NCBI GenBank assembly: GCA_034434995.1
Contig: DAOTYF010000020.1
Span: forward strand, 2,486-66,485
From: Anaerolineae bacterium
GTDB lineage: Bacteria; Chloroflexota; Anaerolineae; Aggregatilineales; UBA3940
Reading direction: 5' to 3'
DNA: 64,000 nucleotides
Shown here piece by piece: positions 29,955 to 64,000 of this stretch (position 1 is the stretch's first letter; each line of letters opens with the position of its first letter). Position numbers and translations under genes: made by a program. The notes beneath the pieces are model-generated. The model worked only from the letters and a program-made list of their open reading frames with translations, had not been told where the DNA came from and searched no databases.

Positions 29955-29960
29955 TTTCTG

Positions 29961-36171: not shown

Positions 36172-36194
36172 TAGAGAAAGTTGTGAGCAGCTAC

Positions 36195-37238: not shown

Positions 37239-37378
37239 TCTCCCCTCCAATCTGCTATTTTGTATGTTGATGTTGCATTGATGGTTCTATGGTTCATATC
37301 TGATCTTGTCCACACGCCGAATGCATCACCTCCTTTGGCCCCTGAATACTGCTTTTGTATACGAGCGCCTATCCCGAA

Positions 37379-38470: not shown

Positions 38471-38491
38471 GGCAAGCTCTCTACCTTTGCT

Positions 38492-41833: not shown

Positions 41834-41863
41834 AGTTCACCCTCCCCTGAGAGCTTTATCGGG

Positions 41864-42538: not shown

Positions 42539-42565
42539 GTGCCGCTCACTCTCCCTTTGGCTGGG

Positions 42566-43195
42566 CTATTCAGGCTCCCAGACGCGCACCAGCAACTCAG
42601 TACAGGCCGGGCCGTTGATCGGCGTCTGATCCTGTGGGCACGCCGACAGAGCACACACGAGGTCTTCCAACGCCTCCAGTGTGATGAAGGAGCCAGGCCC
42701 ATGAGTCGATTCCAGGTAGACCATCTTACCGTCTGGTTCGATGCGGGTCTTCATGAACACGTTCCAGGCGTGCTCACCATGCACCTCCCAGTCACCCAGA
42801 CCAATGCTGGTCAGCCCTTCTTTTAGGTTAACCAGGCAGCTTCGGTGATCGTAGATGCCGTAGCGGGTGATGTAGGTCTCAGGGTCGCAGCATGGCACGA
42901 TGATGTCGTGGTAACCCACCGTATCCTCGGCAATCCGCATCAAGTTATTGCGTCGGTTGCTCGCCAGCACGAACCCCGGCTTGAGGGCGATGCTCCAGTT
43001 CTGGGTGACAGTGTGCTTAGGGGAGAAGTACTCGGTTGGGTCATCCGCTTTGAACGCCACCAAGTCGCCTACCTGTTGGCCCTGCACATCAATGATCTGG
43101 AAGCGCTCGCCCTTCCGCACGCGGAAGGCACAGCCGTGCATAGCAGGCGCCAGGACTTCCTGTTTGAGTCTGAACCCAGGCATGCTGGCCATCAC
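42566..43195 (-). CDS. DUF1989-like (urea-carboxylase-associated) family protein
   Basis: AFRVRKGERFQIIDVQGQQVGDLVAF, HTVTQN and CCDPETY resemble the DUF1989 family, recalled from memory. Confidence 0.6.
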   Translation of the reverse strand: MMASMPGFRLKQEVLAPAMHGCAFRVRKGERFQIIDVQGQQVGDLVAFKADDPTEYFSPKHTVTQNWSIALKPGFVLASNRRNNLMRIAEDTVGYHDIIVPCCDPETYITRYGIYDHRSCLVNLKEGLTSIGLGDWEVHGEHAWNVFMKTRIEPDGKMVYLESTHGPGSFITLEALEDLVCALSACPQDQTPINGPACTELLVRVWEPE

Positions 43196-43204
43196 GCCAC
43201 CTCC

Positions 43205-44368
43205 CTATTTGCGGACGACCTCGGCCATACGGGTCGAGGCGGGTGTGTTACGGCTCTTCATCGCCCGAATCTCGCCGTCGATGATCACGCACGAGATACC
43301 GGGAATATCGCCGTTCTCAATCGCGCCTAGCGCATCCGAGCGCGAGCAGCCAAGCGGGGCATCGATCACCACCAGGTCAGCATCGCGGCCCACCTCGATC
43401 CGTCCGCTGTTCTTGCGGAGCACGTCAGCGGCGTTGCCGCTCGCCAGCGCCCAGGCTTGAGCGGCAGGTAGCCCTGCTAGCGAAGACATCTCCACCACTG
43501 ATTTGATGTCGGCCATCGGCATAACGCCCGTGCCGCTGGGCGTGTCGCTGGCGATCAGAACGCGGTATAACTGGTTGTGTTCGCGCGCGAGCTCGATGAT
43601 CTTGATGGCGGAGCGGACGTTGCCCGCCTGACAGATTTGCAGGTAAAAGCTAGCCTCCTTTACCAGCAATTCAACACCCGAATCGGGCAAGGAGGTTGTG
43701 CCGCCGTTGGTGTGCGCCGAGATGTTCGGTTGGAGAACCAGTAGATCGTCGGCGGTGACCGGCGCGCTGCCGGGGATCGACGCGCCACCGGTGTGGCACA
43801 TCACGACGAAGCCATACTTCTGTGCCCAGCGTACCAGTGGCTCGGCGTCGGTTGGCTTCTTGAAGTCGCCGAAGCCCACTTTGCCCAACCATACACCGAC
43901 CTCGGATAGCTCCTTGAAATCGGCCTCTACCAGGCCGGGCTGGAAGATCACCGACCCGGCGTAGACCTTGACCCCGGCGGGCCGGAAGGCTGAATAGGAC
44001 TTGAAGGCGGTGATCGCCAGCGCCTTGACGCCGACCGGGTCTTTGGGCCAGCCCGGCAGGTGGACTTCGCTGGCGGACATCATCGCGGTGACGCCGCCAT
44101 GCATGTAACTTTCGATCCAGCCCAGAGCATTCTGTCGCGGCGTCCAGTCGCCGAAGACGATGTGCACGTGGGTATCGATCAGGCCGGGCGCGACCGTTGC
44201 GCCCTTCACGTCCACCACCACATCGGCGGCCTGGGCGTCCATCGCTGTGCGGTCGCCGATTTGCGAGAACTTGCCATCCTCAATGAGGATAGTGTCGCCT
44301 TCGATCACTCCTCGTTGCAGGTCGCCGCTGATGATGTGGCCGATGTTGATCAGCGCCAGGCTGCTCAT
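43205..44368 (-). CDS. Enamidase-like amidohydrolase
   Basis: The whole 387-aa length resembles Eubacterium barkeri enamidase as I recall it: INIGHIISGD, PGLIDTHVHIVFGDWTPRQ, HGGVT, PAGVKV, HTGGASIPGSAPVTADD, GDIPGIS, KSRNTP. Confidence 0.7.
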   Translation of the reverse strand: MSSLALINIGHIISGDLQRGVIEGDTILIEDGKFSQIGDRTAMDAQAADVVVDVKGATVAPGLIDTHVHIVFGDWTPRQNALGWIESYMHGGVTAMMSASEVHLPGWPKDPVGVKALAITAFKSYSAFRPAGVKVYAGSVIFQPGLVEADFKELSEVGVWLGKVGFGDFKKPTDAEPLVRWAQKYGFVVMCHTGGASIPGSAPVTADDLLVLQPNISAHTNGGTTSLPDSGVELLVKEASFYLQICQAGNVRSAIKIIELAREHNQLYRVLIASDTPSGTGVMPMADIKSVVEMSSLAGLPAAQAWALASGNAADVLRKNSGRIEVGRDADLVVIDAPLGCSRSDALGAIENGDIPGISCVIIDGEIRAMKSRNTPASTRMAEVVRK

Positions 44369-44383
44369 TATTCACCTCTTTGC

Positions 44384-45901
44384 CTAGAACTTGAACCCTC
44401 GTACTCGCTCGCCGAGAAACACGCCGACATGCTTAGCCTCGGTGTATGACAGCAGCGATTCCAGGCCCAGCTCGCGGCCCATGCCGCTGGATTTGTAGCC
44501 GCCGAAGGGTGTCTCATTAAACAGCGTCATATTGGTGTTGATCCAGACCCCCCCAGCGCGAATCTGGCGGGCCACGCGATGGGCCCGCTTAACATCACTC
44601 GTCCACACCGTCGAAGCCAGCCCATAGCTGGTCTCGTTAGCCAATCGGATCGCTTCCTCCTCTGTGCGGAACGTGATGATCGACGCCACAGGGCCGAAGA
44701 TTTCCTCCTGGGCAATGCACATCCGGTTGCTGACGCGGTCGAAGATGGTGGGTAAATAGAAGTTACCCCGGCTCAGCGCTGGGTCATCGGGGCGCCCGCC
44801 TCCGGTGACCAGCATCGCTCCCTCAGACTGACCGATCTCCACATAGCGGTGAACGCTTTCAACCTGCCCCCGCGAGATCAGGGGGCCCATATGGGTCGCG
44901 CGGTCAAGGGGATTGCCCAGCCGTAACTGCCGTGCGCCATCGAGCATCTTGGCCACAAAAGCATCATGGATGCTCTCGTGCACTAGAATGCGTGAGCGAG
45001 CCGCGCACATCTGCCCTGCGTTGAAGTAGATGGCCGTCAGTGAGGCTGTAACCGCTTGGTCGAGGTCCGCGTCCGGGAAGATCAGGCTGGGCGACTTGCC
45101 GCCCAACTCCAATGAGATGCGTTTGATGCCGTCGGCAGCCAGCTTCATGATCTTAGCCCCGGTGCGGGTCTCGCCCGTTAGCGAAATCTTGCCGACCGCC
45201 GGGTGAGATGCCAGTGACTCGCCTACCACCGCGCCCGGCCCGGTAATGATGTTCAGCGCACCAGGAGGAAGCCCGGCGTCGAGTGCCACCTGGCCCAGCA
45301 TCAAGGCACTCAGCGGTGTTGCGCTGGCGGGCTTGAGGATCACAGTGTTGCCCGCTGCCAGCGCGGGCGCGACCTTCCAGGCCGTGATCTGAAAGGGAAA
45401 GTTCCAGGGGACGATGCCCACGCATACACCTATTGGCTCGTGCAGCGTGTAACTGAAGAAATCGGTGGGAACCTGCGGTGTCGCACCTTCGAGCAGCCGC
45501 GCCGCGCCCGCGTAATAGCGGAAGCAGTCCACGACCGTCTCAACGTCGTCCTCGGCCTGGAAGATCGGCTTACCGACATTCAGCGTCTCAACCTGCGCGA
45601 TATCTGAAGCCCGCTCGGCAATCAGTTCGGCCATCTTGTACAGCAGGTGACCACGCTCGCGGGCGGACATCCAGCGCCAGGATGGGTCTTCAAAAGTCGC
45701 GGCGGCAGCCTCAACGACCCGGTTGACATCGGTCTCATCCGCTCTGGCAACCTGCGTCAGAACCTCATTTGTGGCTGGGTTAACCACATCCATGACCGCG
45801 CCGCTGGCCGCCTCGACCCACTGGCCGTTGATCAGGAGACGCTTGGGGCTGTCGTCCAGGTAAGCCTGAACAGTGGTTGAGGGTTGCGTTGCTTCACTCA
45901 T
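44384..45901 (-). CDS. NAD(P)-dependent aldehyde dehydrogenase
   Basis: FPFQITAWKVAPALAAGNTVILKPA, ELGGKSP, GQMCAARSR (catalytic Cys) and EEIFGPV are present. Confidence 0.9.
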   Translation of the reverse strand: MSEATQPSTTVQAYLDDSPKRLLINGQWVEAASGAVMDVVNPATNEVLTQVARADETDVNRVVEAAAATFEDPSWRWMSARERGHLLYKMAELIAERASDIAQVETLNVGKPIFQAEDDVETVVDCFRYYAGAARLLEGATPQVPTDFFSYTLHEPIGVCVGIVPWNFPFQITAWKVAPALAAGNTVILKPASATPLSALMLGQVALDAGLPPGALNIITGPGAVVGESLASHPAVGKISLTGETRTGAKIMKLAADGIKRISLELGGKSPSLIFPDADLDQAVTASLTAIYFNAGQMCAARSRILVHESIHDAFVAKMLDGARQLRLGNPLDRATHMGPLISRGQVESVHRYVEIGQSEGAMLVTGGGRPDDPALSRGNFYLPTIFDRVSNRMCIAQEEIFGPVASIITFRTEEEAIRLANETSYGLASTVWTSDVKRAHRVARQIRAGGVWINTNMTLFNETPFGGYKSSGMGRELGLESLLSYTEAKHVGVFLGERVRGFKF

Positions 45902-46030
45902 AGAACCTCTCTTATGGAGCCTGCCCCATCGGGCGAAGAGTAAACTGAACTGCCCCGCGGTCTCCTCTCACAAGCTAGCCGGAAACGCTTCCCCGTTGGC
46001 TGCTGTACTTACGTAGCTTGGGCGATCCTG

Positions 46031-47527
46031 CTATGACCAGCGAGCAATCACAATCTTGCGGTCGGTGAAGAACAGGACAGACTCGGAGCGACCGTGCAGA
46101 TCGCCATAGGCGGATTCTTTCAGCCCTCCCAGGGTGGCGTATGCCTGGGTCGCAGCCACGCCGATGTTGATGCCAATGTTGCCGCATGTTGCCTGGTGCT
46201 GGAACTTGCGGGCGGCAGCCCCGCTGGCGGTGAACAACATGGCCGAGTGGCCAAAGCGACTGCGCTCGATCATGCCAAGGGCTTCATCCAGGTCCTTCGC
46301 GCGGATGATGCAAGCCACCGGCCCGAAGATCTCCTCCTGCGCGATAACCATGTCCGGCGTCACGTCATCGAAGATGGTTGGGCCGACGAATGCGCCATTG
46401 GGGTAGCCCTCAACTTGCACGCCTCGCCCGTCGAGCAAAAGACGTGCCCCCTGCTCGACGCCTTTATTGATGTAGCCGACAATCCGTTCCTTAGCTTTCT
46501 GAGTGACCACCGGTCCCAGCTCTACGCTCTCATCCATGCCGTAGCCGAGTTTCATCTTTGAGGCCGCTGCGACAAGCCTATCCACCAGCGGCTCGTAGAT
46601 ATCGCCTACGGGGACCAGGATCGACCCTGCCAGACACCGCTGCCCTGCCGCACCAAAGAATGACGAGAGGATTGCTGCCACCGTTGCATCCAGGTCGGCA
46701 TCGGGCATGACAACAAAGTGGTTCTTGGCCCCTGTAGCGCACTGACCGCGCTTGCCGAGCGCAGCAGCCTTGGCGTACAGCATTTTGCCAACTGGCGTGG
46801 AGCCGACGAACGAGAAACCTTGCGTGTCTGGGTGCTCCATCAGGGTATTGACCACGTCGGCGTCACCGTGCACTAGGTTGATCACCCCTGGTGGGAAGCC
46901 GCACTGTTCGATCAGCTCGAAGATACGCACCTGAGAGATCGGGACGATAGGGCTGGGCTTATTGATATAGGTGTTTCCGCAGGCCACCGCGTAAGGCAGG
47001 TACTCCAGTGGGACGAGTGCCGGGAAGTTGAAGGACGGCACCATGAAGAACACGCCCAGCGGTACATACAGCACATCCAGGTCGATGTTGGGGGAGATGG
47101 TATCGTGGAGATAGCCTTTCATCAGGGTCGGGATGCCACAGGCGCACTCTACCTCCTCAATGGCACGCCGCATCTCCGCCCGTGCGTCGGAGATCGTCTT
47201 GCCCATTTCCTGGACAAGCGTTCTTGCCAGGCTCTCAAAGTGCTCCTCCATCAGATGCTTGAGGATGAAGAAGGGTCGGGCGCGGCGCACAGGCGGCTCG
47301 TACTGCCATGTACGGAATGCCTCCTTGGCAACCTGGATAGCCTCGGTTACCTCTTCAGGTGTGGAGTATGGAACCTGTGCGATAACCTCACCCGTCGCCG
47401 GATTGACGATGTCGCGCACGTCGGTCGAACTCGACTCGACCCATCGCCCGCCCACGTAGTTTCTGAGCTTGCCATAGTGCTTCTTTGGCTCGGCCAACAG
47501 GGTTGACGCCTGCTGTGTTGCGATCAC
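46031..47527 (-). CDS. mmsA: CoA-acylating methylmalonate/malonate-semialdehyde dehydrogenase-like ALDH
   Basis: VRDIVNPATGEVIAQVPYSTPEEV, FNFPALVPLEYLPYAVACGNTYINKPS, GAAGQRCLAGS and EEIFGPV are present. There is no ELGGK-type Glu motif (GAKNHFVVMPDA), as in MMSDH. Confidence 0.8.
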   Translation of the reverse strand: MIATQQASTLLAEPKKHYGKLRNYVGGRWVESSSTDVRDIVNPATGEVIAQVPYSTPEEVTEAIQVAKEAFRTWQYEPPVRRARPFFILKHLMEEHFESLARTLVQEMGKTISDARAEMRRAIEEVECACGIPTLMKGYLHDTISPNIDLDVLYVPLGVFFMVPSFNFPALVPLEYLPYAVACGNTYINKPSPIVPISQVRIFELIEQCGFPPGVINLVHGDADVVNTLMEHPDTQGFSFVGSTPVGKMLYAKAAALGKRGQCATGAKNHFVVMPDADLDATVAAILSSFFGAAGQRCLAGSILVPVGDIYEPLVDRLVAAASKMKLGYGMDESVELGPVVTQKAKERIVGYINKGVEQGARLLLDGRGVQVEGYPNGAFVGPTIFDDVTPDMVIAQEEIFGPVACIIRAKDLDEALGMIERSRFGHSAMLFTASGAAARKFQHQATCGNIGINIGVAATQAYATLGGLKESAYGDLHGRSESVLFFTDRKIVIARWS

Positions 47528-47604
47528 CGGGCAACCTCCTTGTCAGGTAGCGATGAGCAGTTCAAGATTTGCAATTGCCAGAGCGCGCTGGCGGGGTCAG
47601 GCTG

Positions 47605-48180
47605 CTACCGCAGCCCATCCTCGCCTTTGATATCTTCGTATTTCAAACCTCCCAGCCGGAAGTTCGGGCGGCCCCGGTTTGCCCCGGCCACAATCACCAC
47701 CACCTCGTCCGGCTCCGGTGCGTCGGGGACGGTTACCGTGATGGTGTCGTAGTGGGAGCGCACGAATAGGGCGTCTTTGCAAGCCAGCGGCACATCGATA
47801 CTGCTGCCCATTGCCCCTCGCTTGCCGGTCGAGGAGATCCACGCCTTGCCCCCGCCGACAGCCTCACGGAGCTGGTCAGCAAAGACAGTGGTCAGAAAGG
47901 CATGGGTATGTTCGACTTCACCGTTCGACCCGGCGAGGGCAGCCTTGCCGTAGCTCTGAACCGGGCCGCCCATTGCCTCAACCAGCAGTCTGCTGAGCTG
48001 CCGCCCAAGCTCCACGCTGCCATCTACGATCTCGCTGACATCCTCGGAGTAGCGTCCTGCATAGGGGTTCTTGACCACTGCCGCCACCGCCACCTTGCGC
48101 AGCGGCGGCTCAACCTCGATGCCTGCCTCGCGTACTACATGCTCGACAAACGTGACATACTTGCGTATTTCAAGTGCCAC
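47605..48180 (-). CDS. Amino-acid-synthesis family protein (AA_synth/DUF1185-like), function unknown
   Basis: MALEIRKYVTFVEHVV..PLRKVAVAAVVKNPYAGRY, YGKAALAGSNGEVEHTHAFL and VPDAPEPDEVVVIVAGA match the family as I recall it. Confidence 0.7.
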   Translation of the reverse strand: MALEIRKYVTFVEHVVREAGIEVEPPLRKVAVAAVVKNPYAGRYSEDVSEIVDGSVELGRQLSRLLVEAMGGPVQSYGKAALAGSNGEVEHTHAFLTTVFADQLREAVGGGKAWISSTGKRGAMGSSIDVPLACKDALFVRSHYDTITVTVPDAPEPDEVVVIVAGANRGRPNFRLGGLKYEDIKGEDGLR

Positions 48181-48274
48181 AGCCGAAAGCTCCTTACTGA
48201 GTGGAAAGTAGAAAGTTCAAAGACGAAAAGGCACTACGATGCATCTGCTTTCCACTTTTCGATTCAACTCGCTC

Positions 48275-49060
48275 TCAGCCCGCCCCTTGTGCTGCGCCCA
48301 CCCAGGGCAGGATGCCCTCATACAGGTCATCGGGCAAGCCATCAATATACTGGAGGACGTCGTCCAGCTTCCGCACGTCGCCGTACTTCTCGTTGATGTC
48401 GAACAGGTTGATCTTGTGGCTGACCTCGCCCCGATCCCAGACGCACTCCTCTGGAACAACGACATAGTAGTTGTAGGAAAAGCCATCCACTGCCGTCGCG
48501 CGGATGCATCCACTGGTGGTCGTCCCGGTCAGGATGATCGTGTCCACCTTCATGTCGATGAGATAGCTGACCAGGGGCGTGCCGAAGAAGGCGCTGGGCT
48601 TTTTCTTGACAAAGGTGAAATCGTGTGGTTCAGGTGCGACCTCGGCCACGATCTCGTTACCCTTGTGGCCAATCACGTCGATGGGATCGTCGATGCGATA
48701 GTTCTTGCGGTTCCAGGCCCCGTTATCGGCTTTGTCGGCCCGGCGCTCCCAGGTTGTGTAGAACAGCGGCATATGCTTGCGCCGTGCAGCAGCGATGAGC
48801 TTCTGCAGGGCATAGACACCCTGCCAGCCGACCTCACCACAGCTATAGCGCCAGGTTTGGATCGATTCGAGGATCGGCTTGGGCACGTCTCCCACGAAGT
48901 TATAGATCACGTCCACGATTAATAGGGCGGGACGTTGGCCATAGCCAGCGGGCTTGCCCCACCCTGCCCGCTCGTAGACGATGCGGTCTTGCTCAGTAAG
49001 CACGTCATCCCAGATCGCCACGGTGGTCCTCCACAAGTCCAAGGAATGCTGCGCAGTCAA
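48275..49060 (-). CDS. Isochorismatase-family cysteine hydrolase (amidase)
   Basis: PALLIVDVIYNF supplies the Asp and TGTTTSGCIRATAVDG the nucleophile Cys. Length is 261 aa. Confidence 0.8.
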   Translation of the reverse strand: MTAQHSLDLWRTTVAIWDDVLTEQDRIVYERAGWGKPAGYGQRPALLIVDVIYNFVGDVPKPILESIQTWRYSCGEVGWQGVYALQKLIAAARRKHMPLFYTTWERRADKADNGAWNRKNYRIDDPIDVIGHKGNEIVAEVAPEPHDFTFVKKKPSAFFGTPLVSYLIDMKVDTIILTGTTTSGCIRATAVDGFSYNYYVVVPEECVWDRGEVSHKINLFDINEKYGDVRKLDDVLQYIDGLPDDLYEGILPWVGAAQGAG

Positions 49061-49067
49061 GAGAGGC

Positions 49068-50585
49068 TCAGACTGGCTGAGCTGTCACTTCTGCTGCCAG
49101 TGGATAGCACTGATGGCCCGGCATACGCGGCTGGTAGCGCCCAATTGGCTCACCAACCAGGTGTGGCGCGTCTTCGCCATCTGGCCATTCAGCGACAACG
49201 TTGCCGCGCAAGATGGTCATCACTGGCCAGCCTTTGAAGGTATGGCCCTCAGCAATCGACCAGCCGGAGCGAGTGAACAGATGCTTCTTCGCCAGCGTGA
49301 CTTCCTTGTCCAGATCGACCACAACGATATCCGCGTCTGCGCCCACCTGGAGCGTCCCCTTCTTGGGGTATAGGCCGAATATCTTAGCCGGGTTCTCGCA
49401 GCATACTTCGACCATGCGCTCGATGTTGATACGGCCTTTGTTGACGCCCTCGCTGAGCATGACAGGGGTCAAGAGGCCCACACGCGAGGTGAAGCCGGTG
49501 CGGAGCTTCCAGATGTTCTCGTCGTACATCGCCTCACGGGTGGGCGGATCCCACGCCACCACATGATCGGAACCAACGGCGTCGATCACCCCGGTCGCCA
49601 GTGCCTCCCAGATCTTCTCCACATGGTCGCGCCGCCGGAGCGGAACGTTGATCCGCCAGCCGTTCTCGGGGGTGAGATACAGCCAGGCCGGGCCGGTCTG
49701 GGCATAGATCTTGATCCCCTCACCCCGTGCCCGGAGTATCTCCTCATAAGTCAGGCTGGTGGTAGCATGTTGCACGTATAGAGGGACGCCCGTGATCTTG
49801 GCGATGTAGGCATAGGAACGGACATGGTGCGCCTCGCAGAAATCGGGTGAGCGGTCAGTCCACGCGCCGAAGTCGGTGCGGCCTGCCTCGATCAGCCGTT
49901 TCTCAAAGATGCGGGCGATCTGCCAGTTTTCGGCGTGGATGCATATCACACCCGGCGGACCGATCTGGGCGGTTTTCTCCATCGCCAAGTAGACAGTGCC
50001 ATCGTCAAATCCATGCCCTAACCCGGCGCGCCGGCCACCCCAATACTTGTCGAGTGCCGGTTTCATTGATTGGAGATACAGCTTATGCGATGTGACACCC
50101 CACTTCTCAGCATAGAGGGGGATTTCCTCTGCCTGCTCGTCGGTTTCCAGCATGAAGGTCAGGAAGACATCCACCGCTGATACCCGGTTGATAATGCCAA
50201 TCGCGCCATCTAACACCTGGCTGAACGGGACGACGTGCTCCGGCTGCACATATTCCTGGAACGGCTCAGCCCCCAGGCGGGTGCTCGGTGCGTGGATGCC
50301 CCAAGTGGTTACGCCGATGGCGGCGGCTTCCCATGATTCAGTAGCCAACTCCCGTTCGAACGGCACATAGCAGCCAGGGTGTGCCTCGGAGTCCACCAAC
50401 CCCGGCAGCACATACTTCCCCTTCACGTCAATGATGGTGCGGGCTTCGGGCATGAACGGTCCCCGACCCATCGCTACGATCTTGCCGTCCTTGATAGCGA
50501 TCTCCAGGCCATCCTGCACCCCTGCTGAGGAGACCACGCGCCCGCCGACGATTTTCAGGTCTGCGGCAACTGGTACTGCTGTCAT
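49068..50585 (-). CDS. Dihydropyrimidinase/hydantoinase-like cyclic amidohydrolase with ExH in place of HxH
   Basis: VLPGLVDSEAHPG, TSHKLYL (candidate carbamylated Lys), IHAENW, YVQHATT, VGSDHVV and VGADADIVVVD are present. Length is 505 aa. Confidence 0.8.
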   Translation of the reverse strand: MTAVPVAADLKIVGGRVVSSAGVQDGLEIAIKDGKIVAMGRGPFMPEARTIIDVKGKYVLPGLVDSEAHPGCYVPFERELATESWEAAAIGVTTWGIHAPSTRLGAEPFQEYVQPEHVVPFSQVLDGAIGIINRVSAVDVFLTFMLETDEQAEEIPLYAEKWGVTSHKLYLQSMKPALDKYWGGRRAGLGHGFDDGTVYLAMEKTAQIGPPGVICIHAENWQIARIFEKRLIEAGRTDFGAWTDRSPDFCEAHHVRSYAYIAKITGVPLYVQHATTSLTYEEILRARGEGIKIYAQTGPAWLYLTPENGWRINVPLRRRDHVEKIWEALATGVIDAVGSDHVVAWDPPTREAMYDENIWKLRTGFTSRVGLLTPVMLSEGVNKGRINIERMVEVCCENPAKIFGLYPKKGTLQVGADADIVVVDLDKEVTLAKKHLFTRSGWSIAEGHTFKGWPVMTILRGNVVAEWPDGEDAPHLVGEPIGRYQPRMPGHQCYPLAAEVTAQPV

Positions 50586-50597
50586 GTAAAATCCTCC

Positions 50598-51422
50598 CTA
50601 TTGGTCCCTATTGGAATGAATAGATGCCTGCAACGGGCGATGTTCGTCGTGGGGATTGACCCATCCCAGGCTCGCAGAAATGACACCGGCTTGTTCTATG
50701 ACCGACGCTATCAGCTCAGCTCGCCGTGTCGCCTCGAAATGCGGAAGAATGCCAGCAATGCTCAGCGCACCCACCACTCTGTTGGTATGATCCCGAATCG
50801 GCGCACCGATAGCAGCCACCCCTTCGATGACGTCTTCGGTGCTGTATGTATAGCCTTGCTGACGGGTGAGCAGGATATCGGCCCACAGTTGATCTGGATC
50901 GATCAGGGAATGGGGAGTCATCTGCTTGAACTTGCCCTCTGTGAACAATCGCTGGATCTCCCCATCTGGAAGCGAGGCCAATAGTACACGCGGAGCTGCG
51001 CCGCAGTTGAGAGGCAATCGCCCGCCGATGTCAAGGGCCAACACTCGAACCTGATGCTGGCCTTCCACGCGGTCCAGGCAGAGAGCATCATCCCCATCAA
51101 TAACACACAGATAAGCGGTTTCTTCTGTCTTGCGGGCCAGATGGCGCAAGGGAATCTCGCTGCGCCAGCACAGATCGAGGCCCTGCTGGGCCACTGCTCC
51201 CAGCTTAAAGAGAGCCAGGCCAAGGCGGTACCGCCCGGTATTCTCGTCTTGTTCAATGAAACGGTGGGTTTTCAGAGTGCCCAGCAGCCGGTGAACCGTG
51301 CTCACGCTTAACCCAAGCACTTGGCTTAGCTCGGTCAAGGTCAGTTCTGGGCGCTCGGACTGGAAAGCCAACAGCAACCTTAGAGCGCGCTCGACACTGC
51401 GGACGGTGTTGTCAGAACTCAC
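50598..51422 (-). CDS. IclR-family transcriptional regulator
   Basis: SVERALRLLLAF..LTLTELSQVLGLSVSTVHRLLGTL (wHTH) plus a C-terminal IclR effector domain. It is the first gene of the minus-strand operon, 12 nt from the next gene. Confidence 0.9.
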   Translation of the reverse strand: MSSDNTVRSVERALRLLLAFQSERPELTLTELSQVLGLSVSTVHRLLGTLKTHRFIEQDENTGRYRLGLALFKLGAVAQQGLDLCWRSEIPLRHLARKTEETAYLCVIDGDDALCLDRVEGQHQVRVLALDIGGRLPLNCGAAPRVLLASLPDGEIQRLFTEGKFKQMTPHSLIDPDQLWADILLTRQQGYTYSTEDVIEGVAAIGAPIRDHTNRVVGALSIAGILPHFEATRRAELIASVIEQAGVISASLGWVNPHDEHRPLQASIHSNRDQ

Positions 51423-51486
51423 TCTACCCTCGCTAAGGGGCCTGGGAGGCCGAGCACGCCACCCAGCAACCTCATCCGCCGCCGGA

Positions 51487-58482: not shown

Positions 58483-59076
58483 TCAGGAACTCTTGTCGCG
58501 CAGGCGGATGCGCGGTTTGGCCGCTGCTTGCTTTCCAGGGCTGGCGGGCGGCCTCGAATCAGCCGCCGTGGGCTGGGTGAGCTTCACCCGGGCCTTCTTC
58601 CGCCTGGCAGGGGTTCTCCCTGTTGTCCGCCTGTCCACCCGGCGCACCACGCCCGGCACGATCAGCAGCAGGGCCAGCCCCGCTAGCAGTCCGCCGAACA
58701 GCGGCCAGCTTATGGCCCCGGTCGTTTCGGGGATCAATCCACCGGGGTTGTAACCGGTCTCCACAATGTTGGAAGCGCCACTCGCCACCCTGCCAGGGGC
58801 GGTAAGCTGCACTTCGATGCCACGTTCGATGCCATCCCGCAGCGTGTTGGGAGTCAGGTGTGATGGTCCGTGTTGAACGTGATCGGCAGCAAGCCGCGCC
58901 TCGATCAGCACGTTTTGCACACAACCTTGTCCCAATCTGGCAGAGAGGGGCGGCAAGAGGCTGAGAAAGATCGTAGCGGATGGGAAATGGGAAGAAGGAG
59001 AAAAGCGGAGTGCTATGCTACATTCCTCCCCATCGGGATGCAGGCTGCTCCTATCTGAGCACCGCCTTGATCTCAA
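58483..59076 (-). CDS. Hypothetical protein with C-terminal TM segment and long basic tail
   Basis: The only long ORF in the 600-nt gap after the GH94 gene. It has a hydrophobic helix ([21 protein letters not shown]) followed by RRVDRR and a Lys/Arg/Pro-rich tail. The start is uncertain because the listed start overlaps the GH94 3' end. Confidence 0.3.
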
Positions 59077-61492
59077 TCTCCTGGTTCTGCGGGGGGAGGC
59101 AGACGACGGTGCCCTCGATGGGCTGCCCGTTGACAGTTAGGGAGATAGCGTTTCCTGGCCCATCTCTGACGACGACGATGCGGTAGGTCGCGCCTCGGAA
59201 GGTACGCCGAGCCGTGAAGCCAGCCCAGTTGCTGGGGATAGCTGGCGCGATCTCCAGTCCGTCGTAGGTGGGGCGGATACCCAGGATCCACTGGGTGATG
59301 GCAACATAATTCCAGGCCGCCGTTCCAGTCAGCCAGGAGTTCTTGGCCTCACCGTGAGACGGAGCGTCACGTCCGGCGATCATCTGTGCGTAGACGTAAG
59401 GTTCGCAGCGATGGATCTCGCTGATCGATTCTCGCACCGAGGGATTAAGGCGCTGATAGTAATCAAACGCGCGATCGCCGCTCCCGGCTATCGTCTCAGC
59501 GATCATGATCCAGGGGTTGGTATGGCAAAAGATGCCGGCGTTTTCCTTGAAGCCGGGCGGATAAGACGATATCTCTCCCAGATGCAAGTAATAGCGCGAG
59601 TAGGCTGGCTGCTGCAAGATGATGCCATGCGGTGTTGCCAGCCGGTCGTGGACGGATCTCAGCGCCTGTGCTGCTCGTCCATCGTCCAGCCCTAACCCCG
59701 CCATCAGACACATCCCCTGTGGTTCGATGAAGATCTGGCCCTCCTCACACCGATGCGAGCCTATCGGTTCCCCAAAGGCATCGTAAGCACGCAGAAACCA
59801 CTCACCGTCCCAGCCATAACTGGCAACGGCCCTGGCCATCTCATTAGATGCTTCAAGAATCCACTCCCGGTCGGCGCTGTTCCCTCTATGAGTTGCGATC
59901 TGGGCCAATTCCTTTGCTGCCAGCACGAACAAACCCGCAATGAAGATGGACTCAGCTATCCCGCTCTCTCTGTTAGCAGCCGTCTGGAACGACTCGCCCG
60001 GCTCCTCGGAGAACGTGTTGAGGTTCAGACAATCATTCCAGTCGGCGCGGCCAATCAAAGGCAGGCCATGCGGCCCCAGTCGGGCCAGCGTGTAGCGGAG
60101 GCTGCGTCGCAGGTGTTCATACAACGGGGCTTCGGTGCCGGGACGGTTTTCGAACTGCACTGGCACATCGAGGATAGCCCAATCGCCGGTCTCCTTCAGA
60201 TACGCTGCGACGCTCAGGACCAGCCACAGCGGGTCGTCATTGAAGTTACTCCCGATGGCATCATTGCCTCGCTTCGTGAGCGGCTGGTATTGGTGGTATG
60301 CTCCGCCGTCCTCTATTTGGGTCGTGGCGATATCCAGAATGCGCTCACGAGCGCGCTCCGGCATCATGTGCACGCAACCCAGTAAATCCTGGTTAGAGTC
60401 GCGGAAGCCTATACCACGACTGACGCCGGCCTCGAACATCGATGCCGAGCGCGATAGGTTGAAGGTAACCATGCATTGGTAGGCATTCCAGATGTTGACC
60501 ATACGGTTGGTATGCTCATCAGGGGTTTCGACCTGGATGACATTCAGTAGTTCGCTCCAGCGGGCACGCAGCGCGTTGAAGGCTGCTTGGACATGATGAG
60601 GATCGAGGTAGCGCGAGATGATGGGCCTGACTGTCACCTTGTTGATCGTTTGTGAGTGGGGTGGATCGAACTTCTGGTCAGGCGGGTTCTGATGATAGCC
60701 TAGCAGGAAAATGATCGAATGGCTTTCGCCAGGTGGAAGAACCAGCCTCACATGGTGCGATCCAATGGGGAACCAGCCATGCGCAATGGAGTTGGACATC
60801 TGGTCACGCTCGACGGCTTGAGGGCGATCCCAGCCTGCGTAAGGTCCCAAAAATGCCTCGCGTTGCGTATCGAATCCGACCAGTGGCTCCGAGCAGGCGA
60901 AATAGGCAAAATGGTCACGCCGTTCGCGGTACTCGGTCTTGTGGTAGATGACGCCATCCTCGATCTCAACTTCGCCGGTGCTGAGATTGCGCTGGTAGTT
61001 GGTGGCGTCATCCCAGGCGTCCCACAGGGCGAACTCAATTGCCGAGAACACCGACAAGGACGCAGCAGTTTCACGCAGGTTCGTGATCGTGGTCTGCCAA
61101 ATCTCCAGATTCTCGCCAAGCGGGACAAAGTAACACGTCTGCGCAGCTATTCCCAGGTACGTCGAGCCGATAATCGTGTAACTCAAGCCATGGCGGCACA
61201 CATAGCTTTCAAGGTTGCAGCGGGTTGGCTGCCACGAGGGGGACCAGAATTCGCCACTCGCGGCGTCGCGCAGGTAGATATAGCGCCCGCCGACATCCAT
61301 CGGCACGTTGTTGTAGCGGTAGCGGGTCAACCGACGTAGGCGGGCGTCGCGATAGAACGAGTACCCGCCCGCTGTGTTGGAGATAATCCCAAAGAGGGCC
61401 TCCGTTCCAAGATAGTTCACCCAGGGCAAGGGGGTGTCAGGCCGGGTAATAATGTACTCCCTGTTGGTGTCATCGAATCTGCCGTAGCGCAT
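59051..61492 (-). CDS. Cellobiose phosphorylase (GH94)
   Basis: The full 813-aa length resembles Cellvibrio gilvus/Clostridium cellobiose phosphorylase as I recall it: [74 protein letters not shown] and [12 protein letters not shown]. Confidence 0.9.
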
Positions 61493-62035: not shown

Positions 62036-62788
62036 ATGGGTTTTGAGGGCTGCATCTGGGTTGGCAATGGCACTTCTTCCATGTCTGACGAGATCGTTTG
62101 CCTAGTCCCGATATCAGGGCAGGACCCGGAGTTCCAGGGTGAACAACTTCCGACCTTGGGAAACCGTGACCTATTAAGCTACACACTTAAAGCTGCCCTC
62201 GACGCGCAGCGCATCGACCGGGTGGTGGTCTCAACGGACAGTGAGCGGATCGCAGCCGCCTGCCGGAAGCAGGGGGCCGACGTGCCCTTCCTGCGGCCCG
62301 TATCACTGGCGACTCCAGCCACCTCGTTGGTGAGCGTTTTGTGCCATGCTCTGGAGTGGCTGGCAGAGCATGAAGATTATCGCCCTGATTGGGTGCTGTT
62401 GATGACGATCACGTATCCGTTCCGGCGTGCTGGGTTTATTGATGCCTTCCTTAGCAGCGTTTTGCAATCTCATGTGAACTCCGCGTTTACTGCGGTTATC
62501 GAGCGCAATGCTCATTGGTACTCGGACGAAGACGGGCGGCCTCGGCTGGTGTCATTCGGCAGTGACATAGCCCGCGCGCATAAGCCCCCTCTTTACAAGG
62601 AAATGAGCGGCTTGGCGCTGCTCACCCGACGGGAGATCGTGCTTTCTGGTACGTTGTACGGTGATGAACTGGGCATTGTTCCTGTCTCCGACGCCTGGGC
62701 CACGATTAACATCCATGACGAGATCGGCAAGCAACTTGCCCGGTTGCTTGCACCGCATTTTCAGTCTAGCGAGGACCTAATCCGTTGA
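62036..62788 (+). CDS. Cytidylyltransferase-like protein (CTP_transf_3/NeuA family) with a degenerate nucleotide-binding loop
   Basis: RDLLSYTLKAALDAQRIDRVVVSTDSERIAAACRKQGADVPFLRPVSLA aligns with NeuA-type enzymes. The N-terminal PARGGSKGxxxKN loop reads PISGQDPEFQGEQLPTLGN. The start may be the ATG at 62084 (MSDEIVCLVPI). Confidence 0.65.
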   Translation: MGFEGCIWVGNGTSSMSDEIVCLVPISGQDPEFQGEQLPTLGNRDLLSYTLKAALDAQRIDRVVVSTDSERIAAACRKQGADVPFLRPVSLATPATSLVSVLCHALEWLAEHEDYRPDWVLLMTITYPFRRAGFIDAFLSSVLQSHVNSAFTAVIERNAHWYSDEDGRPRLVSFGSDIARAHKPPLYKEMSGLALLTRREIVLSGTLYGDELGIVPVSDAWATINIHDEIGKQLARLLAPHFQSSEDLIR

Positions 62789-64000
62789 CCCAACTGACTC
62801 ATACGGCGCCTCGTATCCTCGGGATCATCCTGGCGCGTGGAGGCTCCAAGGGTGTGCCGCGCAAGAATATCCGGCCAGTGCTTGGTCAACCCTTGATCGC
62901 CTACACGATCTGCGAAGGGCTTAGAAGCAGCCGAATCACCCGGCTGATTGTCTCATCCGATGATGATGAGGTCCGTGCAATCGCGCAGCGGTACGGCGCG
63001 GAAGCGCCATTTCGCCGCCCGGCTGATCTAGCGACCGATACGGCAACCAGCACCGCTGCCCTCCAACACGCTGTTGCGTGGGCAGAAGAGGACGAAGGGC
63101 AACTCTACGATTTTATTGTCGAGTTGATGGTCACCAATCCGCTCAAAACCGCGCAGGATATTGATGCAGTCATTGAGAAGTTGATCGCTACCAAGGCGGA
63201 GTCGGTCATTGCCGTAGCCAGGCTTGACGATCACCACCCAGCCCGCGCCAAGAAGATCGAGAATGATCGGATCGTGGACTTCTGCGTGCCAGAGACGAGC
63301 AGCCGCCGCCAAGACCTGGAACCTCCTGCCTACGTTCGCAATGGCGCGATCTACGCCATGCGCCGCGATGTGTTAATGGAACTTGGCCTACGGTTTGGCT
63401 CGCCAGATAGCCGCCCCTATATCATGCCACCCGAGCGCAGCGTTAACGTCGACTCTGAGACGGATCTGATCGTCGCTGAGCATTATCTCAAACAGCGCGA
63501 CCTCTCTCACGTGCGTCCGAAGTACGCGATCAGCCTGCGGATGGGGGCATGGTACGAGGACCGCCTGGAGCACTTAGCTGTGCCTGATCACTGGCCTGTA
63601 TGTGTGTACGACATGCAGGGGGCAGCTCCCCTGGATGACCAGGGAATTAGGGATGCGCTTCTCAATCCCATTGGCACGCCGCGCCTGCGCGAACTAGCGC
63701 AGGGGAAGAGTAAAGTCTGCATTGCGGTGGATGATCTGACTCGTAGCACAGAGGCATATCGCATTGTACCCTTCCTGATCGAGGAGTTGCACGCAGCGAA
63801 TATTGCGGACCGGCAGATCTATTTCGTAATCAGCCTGGGCACACACCGACCTTTCACCTATCATGACGCAGTTAAAAAGCTGGGCCGCCAGGTGTATGAG
63901 ACCTATGCGGTTTACAGCCACAATCCGTACCAGAATATCATACGATTGGGCAAGACCTCGAGAGGCACACCTATCACGGTTAACCGCTATTTCTATGAGG
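62785..64000 (+). CDS. Cytidylyltransferase (NeuA/LegF/PseF-like) fused in frame to a LarA-like (DUF2088) domain; 3' end outside window; absent from the ORF track
   Basis: The frame is open from the stop at 62767-62769 to the window end. I translated every codon from 62785 to 64000 and found no stop. The TTG at 62785 overlaps the upstream TGA (TTGA). N-terminal part: ILARGGSKGVPRKNIRPVLGQPLIAYTI, VSSDDDEVRAIAQRYGAEAPFRRPADLATD and VRNGAIYAM. From about 63541: LLNPIGTPRLRELAQGKSKVCIAVDDLTRSTEAYRIVPFLIEEL..FVISLGTHRP, matching the LarA N-terminal domain. Confidence 0.75.
   Translation, partial: MTQLTHTAPRILGIILARGGSKGVPRKNIRPVLGQPLIAYTICEGLRSSRITRLIVSSDDDEVRAIAQRYGAEAPFRRPADLATDTATSTAALQHAVAWAEEDEGQLYDFIVELMVTNPLKTAQDIDAVIEKLIATKAESVIAVARLDDHHPARAKKIENDRIVDFCVPETSSRRQDLEPPAYVRNGAIYAMRRDVLMELGLRFGSPDSRPYIMPPERSVNVDSETDLIVAEHYLKQRDLSHVRPKYAISLRMGAWYEDRLEHLAVPDHWPVCVYDMQGAAPLDDQGIRDALLNPIGTPRLRELAQGKSKVCIAVDDLTRSTEAYRIVPFLIEELHAANIADRQIYFVISLGTHRPFTYHDAVKKLGRQVYETYAVYSHNPYQNIIRLGKTSRGTPITVNRYFYE

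Follow-up and report, generated by a model that had tools for sequence, protein, structure and literature searches.

A cytidylyltransferase–LarA fusion in a sialic-acid-type operon points to an undescribed nickel-pincer role in cell-surface sugars

Introduction

The NeuA proteins of Escherichia coli K1 and group B Streptococcus combine a cytidylyltransferase (CT) with an O-acetyl esterase, and vertebrate CMAS joins a CT to a HAD-like domain. In TarIJ/Bcs1 a reductase works with a cytidylyltransferase, and the two are sometimes fused. The characterised homologues of lactate racemase LarA are all, to our knowledge, isomerases of free 2-hydroxy acids that serve central metabolism or catabolism, and we know of none that acts elsewhere than at C2 of a 2-hydroxy acid. 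Full-text literature searches, together with the supplements of two LarA-superfamily surveys, returned no description of a LarA–CT fusion, and the same sources held no link of LarA to NeuB or sialic acid and no dehydrogenase–CT–NeuB module. Here we describe a gene that joins a NeuA-type CT to a LarA-type domain.

Results and Discussion

The fusion gene is genuine, conserved but rare

The window, by which we mean the whole 64,000-nucleotide stretch of DNA analysed, ends within an open reading frame on the forward strand (62785..64000) that has no stop in frame. Its translation gave 405 codons and zero stops, as a sequence-only reading of the window had stated, and all the motifs quoted there were found (ARGGSKGVPRKN, SSDDDEV, YGAEAPFRRP, NGAIYAM, VCIAVDDLTRSTEA and SLGTHRP). 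These are the first 405 of 661 codons, or the first 61% of the protein, and the gene runs on for 771 nt past the window end, stop codon included. The TTG start codon at 62785 overlaps the TGA stop of the upstream gene (62786-62788), and a Shine-Dalgarno-like GAGGA, read from the sequence, lies 9 nt ahead of it (62771..62775, forward strand). The full-length protein (P0001, 661 aa) is 100% identical to the window translation, and NCBI, Logan and ENA records include a 661-aa protein that falls in its 90%-identity cluster. Over the entire stretch that they share with the window (7923+1216 and 1802+1216 bases), two JGI contigs match it at 100% identity, and both extend beyond the window end; in locus L001 the fusion gene occupies 7924-9909 and is identical over the window overlap.

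The in-frame CT–LarA fusion proposed from the sequence was the same in the two further assemblies and has about 30 homologous counterparts. That no fusion of LarA to a nucleotidyltransferase was known is borne out for the literature, where we found no paper, but the architecture is not unique to the window: public databases hold ~30 fusion clusters at 44-65% identity from Chloroflexota and Nitrososphaerota, mostly the latter, annotated automatically as, for example, 'lactate racemase domain-containing protein'. Twenty-four full-length fusions aligned end to end with a mean column identity of 64%. The junction (…DLSHVRP|KY…W) aligned without gaps among the closest fusions, and in the 23 other full-length fusions the alignment was unbroken through it, with no frameshift. 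An AF2 model of the two-domain protein reached a pLDDT of 85 and a pTM of 0.82. The fusion is genuine, conserved but rare.

Both halves of the protein look catalytically intact

Residues 1-245 (62785..63519, forward strand) were assigned by Pfam, NCBIfam, PDB and Foldseek comparisons to the NeuA/LegF/PseF type of cytidylyltransferase. Pfam CTP_transf_3 matched residues 13-148 of the window fragment (E 1e-19) and, as PF02348, scored 70 bits on the full protein, where Lar_N was detected as well. NCBIfam PseF matched residues 13-234 (E 2.8e-42) under its equivalog cut-off (143.6 bits against 205.7) and KdsB models gave at most 39 bits, with no equivalog-level assignment to either family. The PDB sequence match was Vibrio cholerae CMP-Neu5Ac synthetase (6ifd, E 9.6e-35), and Foldseek gave target TM-scores of 0.80-0.84 at 36-38% identity. 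Stand-alone CT relatives are 60-73% identical to the CT domain of the fusion, and R18, G20, S21, K22, K27, N28, R175, Q176, D223 and D227 are invariant among the close ones. K27, N28, D223 and D227 are also invariant in the 24 fusions, where conservation is 90% or higher at R18, G20, S21, R175 and Q176 and lower at K22; the motifs RGGSKG...KN, RQ, NGAIY and D223/D227 are invariant or nearly so. From NeuA structures we take these residues to serve nucleotide and metal binding, with a conserved pair of acidic residues towards the C-terminal end of the CT. The earlier assignment of this half is upheld by the domain matches, the motifs and the likeness to 6ifd, and, judged by its motifs, the CT looks catalytically intact.

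The LarA-like domain spans residues 246-661, and its N-terminal part (residues 246-405) lies in the window at 63520..64000 on the forward strand (Lar_N, PDB and Foldseek). Pfam Lar_N matched residues 257-405 of the window fragment (E 3.7e-33), and PF09861 scored 180.8 bits on the full protein (E 2.5e-53); the NCBIfam models LarAH6, LarAH10, LarAH5 and LarA matched residues ~260-405 of the fragment, and LarA sequences in the PDB matched at E 1e-40 to 1e-43. In Foldseek, target TM-scores against 9eid, 8ezf and 5huq were 0.79-0.82 over ~440 columns, which is the whole two-domain LarA fold, and residues 246-661 make up a complete LarA fold. The NCBIfam scores stayed at less than half of every LarA-family equivalog cut-off (LarAH6 249/500, LarAH5 221/462, LarA 206/460 and LarAH10 206/540 bits), and the protein belongs to no characterised LarAH family.

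In the alignment to 5huq, the DDLTR segment (63730..63744, forward strand) provides Asp316, Asp317 and Arg320, with Asp317 corresponding to Asp72 and Arg320 to Arg75 of Lactobacillus plantarum LarA. None of the 24 fusions deviates at Asp316 or Asp317; across 85 homologues Asp317 is invariant, and Asp316 is invariant in the 19 CT-linked proteins and present in 95% of the others. The window protein has Arg at position 320, and most archaeal members have Lys there. The first catalytic His, equivalent to His108 of L. plantarum LarA, is His354, encoded by cac at 63844..63846 on the forward strand, where the sequence-only reading had placed it. His354 and His418 (His174) are invariant in the 24 fusions and the 85 homologues, Lys428 (Lys184, the covalent cofactor tether) and His444 (His200, a Ni ligand) are invariant in the 85 homologues, and the GFSGGxK loop does not vary among the bacterial and archaeal proteins, whose overall identity is 44-65%. 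The C-terminal half is therefore of LarA type, as had been proposed, with the whole fold, both catalytic His, the tether Lys and the Ni-binding His kept, and on these residues it looks catalytically intact. Of the catalytic region expected downstream, His418, Lys428 and His444 are in place, but the Lys298 equivalent is replaced by Asn540.

Gln295 and Lys298, which belong to helix alpha-11 of LarA, correspond to Met537 and Asn540 of the window protein. Among CT-linked proteins position 298 is Asn in 15, Ser in 4 and Lys in none of the 19, versus Lys in 35/66 other homologues, and position 295 is Leu or Met in 15/19. Lys298 has been called catalytic, homologues without it have been suggested to be possibly unable to invert the stereocentre, and a pair of 'loop' residues that follows the second catalytic His has been proposed to recognise the substrate (PMC7583248). 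The loss of Gln295 and Lys298 fits a substrate other than a simple 2-hydroxy acid. The loop residues co-vary with synthase type, being P/S/A-Y/F in NeuB-linked loci and N-L/M/I in the subclade that holds both loci linked to DAHP synthase (DAHPS).

A dedicated LarA clade accompanies CT and synthase genes

One clade contains all 19 LarA homologues that adjoin a CT, most of which are also near NeuB or DAHP-synthase genes, while none of the 67 other LarA homologues has such neighbours. A NeuB-containing ORF cluster was found at 15/19 of the CT-linked loci versus 0/67 of the others, and according to the phylogeny fusions occur in at least three places within the CT-linked clade. NeuB directly follows the fusion in the window organism, lies 3 kb downstream in the same operon in locus L003, and is the gene immediately before the fusion in every Thaumarchaeota locus, where a gene for an AP_endonuc_2 protein (sugar isomerase/epimerase fold) is always adjacent. 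Two CT-linked loci carry a DAHP synthase in place of NeuB, and at the DAHPS-linked loci a shikimate-dehydrogenase-like gene and a GFO-type reductase stand next to the LarA homologue; the NeuB-linked operons (window, L003 and Thaumarchaeota) have no conserved reductase. In Chloroflexi, SAR324, Omnitrophota, Anaerolineae and Acidobacteria the clade is represented by stand-alone LarA homologues that adjoin separate CT genes, and such stand-alone neighbours of fused domains are Rosetta-stone evidence for a putative CT–LarA coupling. As read from gene neighbourhoods, these data show a dedicated LarA clade tied to CT and synthase genes.

In the window organism the fusion stands second in a glycan operon: a CT paralogue comes first, and the fusion is followed by a NeuB-type synthase, a SAF protein, a short GT2, a 422-aa protein, a second NeuB, NeuC, a methyltransferase and a third CT. 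The paralogue, CT-B (62036..62788, forward strand), is a divergent 250-aa cytidylyltransferase identified by Pfam and NCBIfam and called as a gene in loci L001 and L002. CTP_transf_3 covers only its residues 38-88 (E 3.9e-8), and NTP_transf_3 (E 1.9e-5) and NCBIfam PseF (E 1.2e-17) also match; in other genomes the short GT2 and the CT-B counterpart form one protein, as in L003, L008, L025 and L090. The conserved short GT2 is ArnC/DPM1-like. Apart from the SAF domain, neither the 422-aa protein nor the SAF-only protein had a match in Pfam, NCBIfam or PDB. In L001 the NeuB gene begins right at the fusion's stop codon. Extension downstream thus yielded both the full 661-aa ORF and the nonulosonic-acid genes that had been predicted past the window end, namely two NeuB, NeuC and another CT. 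Together, these analyses establish the architecture, fold, conserved residues, operon and dedicated clade of the fusion.

A candidate nickel-pincer epimerase step in ulosonic-acid activation

Our preferred explanation, to which as a whole we give a probability of roughly 45%, is that the ORF belongs, as its 5' portion, to a gene for a 661-residue, predicted bifunctional enzyme of a Chloroflexota (Anaerolineae-like) bacterium, in which the LarA domain most likely performs a nickel-pincer (NPN) hydride-transfer step of epimerase type on a synthase-derived ulosonic acid, coupled to CMP activation. The adjacent NeuB-type enzyme would condense PEP and an aldose into a 3-deoxy-2-ulosonic (nonulosonic) acid. 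The LarA-like domain, holding NPN through Lys428 and His444, could then use His354 and His418 as acid and base to take a hydride off a secondary alcohol of the ulosonic acid or its CMP ester, and would return it to the opposite face of the transient ketone to give the epimer. The fused CT domain would make the CMP-sugar, and the ArnC/DPM1-like GT2, with an ABC exporter or GT-C enzymes, might hand the residue to a surface glycan. In this scheme we infer the use of NPN, the substrate, the carbon attacked, epimerisation as opposed to another hydride shuttle, and the order of the activities.

The sequence-only reading had suggested epimerisation at a '2-hydroxy-acid-like centre' of such an acid. 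A 3-deoxy-2-ulosonic acid has no hydrogen-bearing 2-hydroxy centre, and because of this and the loss of Gln295 and Lys298 that site is not the obvious one. The loss of Lys298, the NCBIfam LarA scores below half of the cut-offs and the C2 habit of characterised homologues speak against an ulosonic-acid epimerase.

A dehydrogenase commonly takes the place of LarA

The same CT subfamily has a commoner partner, a PGDH-like D-2-hydroxyacid dehydrogenase, encoded downstream or fused. In 31/80 of the closest metagenomic CT relatives a same-strand 2-Hacid_dh gene has its start -60 to +200 nt downstream, and CT–2-Hacid_dh fusions exist (e.g. P0105 and L132). The Arg-Glu-His triad of the dehydrogenase is intact. 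LarA and the dehydrogenase never co-occurred (0/19 and 0/80). That the commoner partner is a dehydrogenase points to a 2-oxo/2-hydroxy carbon and not to a sugar ring hydroxyl, an observation that runs counter to an ulosonic-acid epimerase.

The LarA domain might therefore act at a true 2-hydroxy-acid carbon as a stand-in for the dehydrogenase, which we consider unlikely but the strongest alternative. It could set the C2 configuration of a 3-deoxy-aldonic acid formed from reduced synthase product, or, much as LarA backs up LdhD in L. plantarum, convert the L form of a small 2-hydroxy acid (glycerate-, lactate- or malate-like) into the D form, to be CMP-linked through O2 or glycosylated by the GT2. 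The frequency of the downstream or fused dehydrogenase and its mutual exclusion with LarA favour such a substitution, the shikimate-dehydrogenase-like and GFO-type enzymes of the DAHPS-linked loci could make a 2-hydroxy acid, and the CDP-ribitol synthase TarIJ/Bcs1 offers a reductase–CT pair by analogy. Both the LarA and the dehydrogenase families are known only for 2-oxo/2-hydroxy acid chemistry (PMC7583248, PMC11770544). However, a racemase cannot replace a net reduction, no reductase is conserved in the NeuB-linked LarA operons, and the clade lacks the Gln295/Lys298 equivalents kept by all characterised 2-hydroxyacid LarA enzymes. The CT, moreover, keeps the RQ and other motifs of enzymes acting on the anomeric hydroxyl of ulosonic acids, at 36-38% identity to CMP-Neu5Ac synthetase, and we know of no CMP-linked acyclic 2-hydroxy acid.

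Other hydride chemistry and cofactor supply

NPN could also serve a hydride shuttle other than epimerisation, such as transfer between two substrates or an internal redox isomerisation, in which a carbonyl migrates or the synthase substrate or product is converted between aldose and ketose. NCBIfam contains NPN-dependent isomerase families (LarAH14/15/16), an NPN enzyme has been shown to shuttle hydride between molecules on sugars (PMC13524815), and the adjacent AP_endonuc_2 gene of Thaumarchaeota indicates sugar rearrangements in the pathway. We nevertheless regard this as improbable: both catalytic His are kept, the hallmark of two-faced, proton-coupled hydride transfer and hence of inversion, and the isomerase family model matched very weakly (51 bits against a cut-off of 740).

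The larB, larC or larE genes that had been anticipated beyond the window did not materialise: none lies in the 10 kb downstream or the 62.8 kb upstream of the fusion, that is, within 74 kb of this genome (the window, searched by Pfam, plus 10 kb downstream), nor in ~20 kb around any of ~25 related loci. The supply of NPN to the fusion is therefore presumptive, which counts against the proposed epimerase. Such a gap, with the loss of the Lys298 and Gln295 equivalents and the catalytically inactive C-terminal domain of eukaryotic CMP-sialic acid synthetase, might suggest a cofactor-free domain that serves the cytidylyltransferase as a structural, regulatory or substrate-binding module. The gap itself is uninformative, because the 67 other LarA homologues likewise have no larBCE genes next to them, and the invariance of the Asp72, His108, His174, Lys184 and His200 equivalents and of the GFSGGxK loop is hard to explain without catalysis, making a cofactor-free domain very improbable.

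An assembly chimera or a frameshift joining two genes, a thought prompted by the stand-alone CT and LarA homologues that sit side by side in other genomes, is ruled out for practical purposes by the base-identical, independent JGI assemblies and the NCBI, Logan and ENA record, by ~30 independent fusion clusters (647-689 aa) from two domains of life, by the gap-free junction and by the confident two-domain model. On clade-specific context and the loss of Gln295/Lys298 we also reject a canonical lactate or malate racemase fused by chance. A NeuC-like role in supplying NeuB with its aldose (GlcNAc to ManNAc) is not favoured, as the clade also accompanies DAHP synthase and C2 of GlcNAc has no hydroxyl.

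Implications and comparison with known systems

If an NPN-dependent epimerase acts here, nickel-pincer chemistry would extend to cell-surface sugar biosynthesis and provide a new route to a stereoisomer of an ulosonic acid. A broader and more tentative proposal, which we hold at somewhat longer odds, is that this would be the first LarA-type enzyme in glycan biosynthesis and the first whose substrate is a nonulosonic/ulosonic acid or its CMP ester and not a simple 2-hydroxy acid. It would repeatedly have displaced an NAD-dependent 2-hydroxyacid dehydrogenase, and been fused in its stead, in a widespread, uncharacterised module (NeuB or DAHPS, GT2(-CT), CT, dehydrogenase or LarA, and ABC exporter) for making an acidic sugar found on the surfaces of bacterial and thaumarchaeal cells. 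The analysis also exposes a common, unstudied operon, NeuB–GT2–CT–dehydrogenase–ABC exporter. 'LarA' in ammonia-oxidising archaea has been taken as a sign of lactate use (PMC8397731), a reading that calls for caution since the thaumarchaeal members here are CT fusions adjoining NeuB. Methods for loading NPN in vitro already exist and make the hypothesis directly testable.

Compared with the LarA/LarAH superfamily (5HUQ, Isosphaera pallida LarA 9EID and Mar2 6D6Z), the fusion has in common the whole two-domain fold with Lar_N and the equivalents of Asp72, Arg75, His108, His174, Lys184 and His200. It differs in being joined to a cytidylyltransferase, in having Leu/Met and Asn/Ser for Gln295 and Lys298, in scoring 206-249 bits against cut-offs of 460-540, in forming a separate clade, and in lying in a glycan-biosynthesis operon and not in organic-acid catabolism. 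With the NeuA/LegF/PseF synthetases its N-terminal 245 residues share fold and motifs (V. cholerae 6IFD, at 36-38% identity, Aeromonas caviae CMP-Pse synthetase 9FTB and Neisseria meningitidis 1EYR), as well as the adjacency of a NeuB-type synthase; in contrast to them it carries an extra 416-residue LarA-type C-terminal domain, and it falls under the PseF equivalog cut-off (144 vs 206 bits). By analogy, the two-domain NeuA enzymes of E. coli K1 and group B Streptococcus and CMAS likewise carry, behind the CT, a domain whose present or former task is to modify the sugar that the CT activates, but the partner here is a predicted nickel-pincer hydride-transfer domain and not a hydrolase fold. 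TarIJ/Bcs1 resembles the fusion in that a redox enzyme preparing a polyol or acid is coupled to the activating cytidylyltransferase for a surface polymer, whereas its CT has the IspD-type fold, its partner is an NADPH-dependent alcohol dehydrogenase and its product is a CDP-alditol. The CT–2-Hacid_dh fusions and pairs (P0105, L132, L090-L145) have the same CT subfamily at 45-67% identity, the same domain order as CT–LarA, and shared neighbours in NeuB, an MsbA-like ABC exporter and either a short GT2 or a GT2-CT. Their partner is NAD-dependent and capable of net redox, whereas LarA chemistry is redox-neutral, and the dehydrogenase form is much the commoner of the two.

The CT-LarA fusion is genuine and rare

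Translation of window positions 62785-64000 on the forward strand (frame 1) gave 405 stop-free codons. They contain every motif quoted in the sequence-only reading, which had proposed an in-frame fusion of a NeuA/LegF/PseF-type cytidylyltransferase (CT) with a nickel-pincer (NPN) lactate-racemase-type (LarA) domain, and the codon it had assigned to the catalytic histidine (63844-63846, + strand) is, as read from the sequence, that of His354. Both of its domain calls were borne out by model matches: Pfam CTP_transf_3 (residues 13-148) and NCBIfam PseF (residues 13-234) in the first half, and, in the part of the second half encoded by the window, Pfam Lar_N (residues 257-405) and four NCBIfam LarA-family models (residues ~260-405). 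The start codon is a TTG (62785, +) with a GAGGA ahead of it (62771-62775, +), and it overlaps the TGA stop of the upstream CT gene (TTGA), as is usual for translationally coupled genes.

A 661-residue protein found by database search (P0001) was 100% identical to the window-encoded part. Two JGI metagenome contigs matched the window base for base over the entire overlap and extended past its end, and because of this identity L001 was taken as the continuation of the window DNA. Furthermore, the same 90%-identity cluster contains a 661-aa protein whose contig (175.6 kb) is recorded in NCBI, Logan and ENA. MAGs carrying the fusion include the assembly with this contig, GCA_964451875.1, GCA_040960765.1 and Nitrososphaerales MAGs. 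Sequence searches yielded ~30 clusters of 647-689-aa proteins with both Pfam domains and 44-65% identity to the fusion, and 24 fusions could be aligned end to end, junction included, with a mean column identity of 64%. In Foldseek searches of the PDB with an AlphaFold2 model built from this alignment (pLDDT 85, pTM 0.82), residues ~246-661 matched the whole LarA structures 9eid, 8ezf and 5huq (target TM-score 0.79-0.82, ~440 columns) and residues 1-245 matched CMP-Neu5Ac and CMP-Pse synthetases (target TM-score 0.80-0.84; 36-38% identity to 6ifd). Thus, identity in two independent assemblies, the homologous clusters, the alignment across the junction and the confident model together demonstrate that the architecture is genuine, and the probability that it is an artefact is negligible. 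It is nonetheless rare: among the best 150 matches from 1.84 billion 50%-identity representatives, P0009 was the only protein matching both halves, and 16,189 of the same representatives matched one half at E ≤ 1e-10.

The fusion is encoded in a bacterial glycan operon

The window carries bacterial housekeeping genes for the DnaE C-terminus, FtsH, SelB, GroEL and two phosphofructokinases (PFK). The 175.6-kb contig has a GroEL 100% identical to that of the window, called there as a shorter gene (541 aa); the second-best match (88%) lies on the contig bearing P0002, the closest homologue of the fusion, and named relatives with 81-84% identity are from Chloroflexi or Anaerolineae. The PFK genes (325 and 384 aa) form a tandem at 1823-4045 (+) directly after the dnaE 3' end, and a 391-aa ORF at 12900-14075 (-), directly downstream of selB, had no significant Pfam match and only weak coiled-coil-type ones. 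A respiratory and copper-handling cluster at 24130-32540 (+) encodes COX1, a UbiA/CtaB-like protein, DsbD_2, a P-type heavy-metal ATPase, a 702-aa cytochrome b-ferredoxin fusion protein and a small c-type cytochrome, and the AT skew across it is markedly negative (-0.17 to -0.22). A large catabolic island at 32500-51450, with a BMP-family ABC uptake system, a histone-deacetylase-like amidohydrolase, DUF5591, several amidohydrolases, CN_hydrolase, Aldolase_II, DUF1989, two aldehyde dehydrogenases, AA_synth, an isochorismatase and an IclR regulator, suggests nucleoside or N-heterocycle breakdown.

The fusion gene is the second of a co-directional operon, whose order was read from L001: a divergent CT paralogue (250 aa; window 62036-62788, +), the 661-aa fusion, a NeuB of 348 aa beginning at the fusion's stop codon (L001 9906-10952), a 310-aa SAF-only protein (L001 10934-11866), a short GT2 (224 aa), a 422-aa protein (L001 12586-13854), a second NeuB (367 aa), NeuC (381 bits, above its equivalog cut-off), a small methyltransferase and a third CT (235 aa). 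Nonulosonic-acid synthase genes, which the sequence-only reading had suggested seeking downstream, are thus represented by two NeuB genes in the same operon; the NPN biosynthesis genes larB (AIRC/PurE-like, PF00731), larC (PF01969) and larE (TIGR00268), which, if present, it had placed beyond the window, were seen neither in the 64 kb of the window nor in the 10 kb past its end. The sole domain of the 310-aa protein is a C-terminal SAF domain, like the C-terminus of NeuB/PseI, and the synthase barrel is absent from it; the 422-aa protein had no match in Pfam, NCBIfam or the PDB. The CT paralogue aligns with the Pfam model over positions 18-68 only, and CTs of its kind are fused to a short GT2 in L003 (a relative with the fusion), L008, L025 and L090. 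From this second CT and the GT2-CT fusions, the module seems to involve two nucleotidyl-transfer steps. A gene for a GH94 cellobiose/chitobiose-type phosphorylase (window 59051-61492, -) lies upstream of the operon and divergent from it, and one for a GlgP-type phosphorylase (L001 17331-19907) is convergent on its far end.

CT-linked LarA homologues form a single clade

Using the LarA half as query against species-representative genomes, we obtained 80 loci, which were searched together with loci fetched earlier for the operon proteins by tblastn and all-against-all ORF clustering. A CT adjoined or was fused to the LarA homologue at 19 loci. By these neighbourhood counts, whose tblastn component is coarse, 15 of the 19 also had a NeuB-cluster ORF, and none of the 67 remaining LarA loci did. 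The neighbours at these other loci were altronate/galactarate dehydratases, enolase-superfamily enzymes, acyl-CoA ligases and similar, the organic-acid setting in which LarA homologues were known to occur. In a neighbour-joining tree, likewise coarse and only indicative, the 19 linked homologues formed a single clade.

The fusion form was present in the window organism, in L003 and at all Thaumarchaeota, Nitrososphaerales and Nitrosopumilales loci (Thaumarchaeota/Nitrososphaerales: L004, L005, L010-L016 and L024); the Thaumarchaeota loci are mutually syntenic and therefore represent few independent observations. At the archaeal loci a 316-aa NeuB without SAF domain lies directly 5' of the fusion, and an AP_endonuc_2 gene is adjacent. 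Separate CT and LarA genes were found in Chloroflexi, Anaerolineae, SAR324, Omnitrophota and Acidobacteria, and two of these split loci, L008 and L025, have a type-Iβ DAHP synthase (DAHPS) instead of NeuB, together with a shikimate-dehydrogenase-like gene and a GFO-type oxidoreductase. That fusion and fission both occur across several branches, alongside split orthologues, is classic evidence that the CT and LarA activities are functionally tied to each other and to a PEP-dependent ulosonate synthase.

LarA occupies the position of a 2-hydroxyacid dehydrogenase

Among the matches to the CT half, P0105 combines a CT with a D-2-hydroxyacid dehydrogenase (2-Hacid_dh) in one protein, and its locus continues with GT2-CT and NeuB. 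Where a CT from this subfamily stands alone, at a second locus, the order is CT, 2-Hacid_dh, NeuB, GT2. The dehydrogenase domain of P0105 retains the Arg-Glu-His triad (NTARG, DVFEKEP and TSH, read from the sequence), scores 203 bits with the PGDH model against a cut-off of 454, and is itself uncharacterised. When the CT alignment was used as query against metagenomes, 80 loci were retrieved, and at 31 of them the CT was followed, in the same orientation, by a PGDH-like 2-Hacid_dh whose start lay between -60 and +200 nt from it; some of these gene pairs are fused (e.g. L132, 579 aa). Recurrent neighbours at the 31 loci were an SDR epimerase/dehydratase (20/31), NeuB (18/31, often short), a short GT2 and an MsbA-like ABC exporter (14/31); an ABC exporter and GT2 or GT2-CT are common to several LarA-linked loci too. 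A LarA homologue was present at none of the 80 metagenomic CT loci, and a 2-Hacid_dh lay within 10 kb at none of the 19 LarA-linked loci. Given this mutual exclusion and the shared position, the LarA-type enzyme fills the exact slot, including the fusion point, that the 2-hydroxyacid dehydrogenase has in the more frequent version of this module.

The dehydrogenase-type operon, which comprises an SDR epimerase/dehydratase, NeuB (often short and without SAF), a short GT2, a NeuA-like CT, a PGDH-like 2-Hacid_dh and an MsbA-like ABC exporter, is widespread and apparently uncharacterised. Examples, CT-dehydrogenase fusions included, are L090 10001-11761, L091 10001-11704, L132 6962-8698 and L092-L145, and marine metagenomes of low GC content (24-37%) are the source of many such loci.

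Active site and predicted reaction

Active-site residues were numbered as in L. plantarum LarA via a HMMER alignment to 5huq. In LarA, R75, K184 and H200 bind the cofactor, and D72, H108, H174 and K298 act in catalysis (PMC7583248). The fusion's counterparts of Asp72 (Asp317), His108 (His354), His174 (His418), Lys184 (Lys428) and His200 (His444) were invariant in 85 of 85 homologues, and the position of Arg75 (Arg320 in the fusion) was Arg or Lys; His418, Lys428 and His444 are encoded past the window end, where the sequence-only reading had expected the C-terminal half of the LarA domain. The second domain is firmly predicted to have all requirements for NPN binding and two-histidine proton-coupled hydride transfer. 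The position of Lys298 in helix α11, however, was Asn in 15 and Ser in 4 of the 19 linked homologues and Lys in none, compared to Lys in 35 of 66 others, and the position of Gln295 was Leu or Met in 15/19 linked members and Gln in 51/66 others. Homologues without Lys298 might carry out another hydride-mediated reaction, and the two positions that follow the second catalytic His have been proposed as substrate-recognition 'loop' residues (PMC7583248). These two, which lie within P0001 residues 418-420 of the LarA-homologue alignment, were Pro/Ser/Ala-Tyr/Phe in NeuB-linked members and Asn-Leu/Met/Ile in the subclade containing the DAHPS-linked members, a co-variation with the synthase that would be predicted for a LarA substrate originating from the synthase product. 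Furthermore, with every NCBIfam LarA-family model the fusion scored below half the cut-off, and by sequence it is placed outside every characterised LarAH family.

There is solid support for predicting that the fusion serves, as a bifunctional enzyme, a glycan pathway of the NeuB (ulosonic/nonulosonic acid) type. In our preferred reading, to which we assign a probability of roughly 45%, the LarA domain would act on the 3-deoxy-2-ulosonic acid made by the synthase, or on the CMP ester of this acid, transiently oxidising a secondary alcohol and re-reducing it from the opposite face; the CT domain would form the CMP-sugar, and GT2, ABC exporter and GT-C enzymes would deliver it. ArnA-N-, ArnD- and ArnT-like neighbours are found in L003. 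Such an epimerisation is consistent with the loss of Gln295/Lys298 and with the co-variation of the loop residues, and C4 would be a chemically attractive site of attack, because the aldol step sets its configuration. If the alternation of dehydrogenase and LarA in the same module slot is taken at face value, LarA would instead act at a genuine 2-oxo/2-hydroxy acid carbon. We consider this main alternative unlikely, since a net reduction is not replaceable by a racemase, the NeuB-linked LarA operons have no conserved reductase, and the residues holding a 2-hydroxy acid are lost in the linked clade. Another type of hydride shuttle, for instance an isomerase reaction, is improbable, and a cofactor-less LarA-like domain even more so.

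Relation to known systems

In the searched literature, including two LarA superfamily surveys with their supplements, we found no description of the LarA-CT combination, the clade, its glycan context or its altered active site. Automatic database names for the fusions are 'nickel-dependent lactate racemase/CMP-N-acetylneuraminic acid synthetase' and 'lactate racemase domain-containing protein'. For ammonia-oxidising archaea of deep sediments, a 'putative lactate racemase' that is specific to them has been read as indicating lactate use (PMC8397731). The thaumarchaeal LarA homologues that we retrieved were all CT fusions adjoining NeuB, and if the reported gene is the same, that reading may need revision. 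Taken singly, the halves of the fusion belong to known superfamilies, LarA and NeuA/LegF/PseF.
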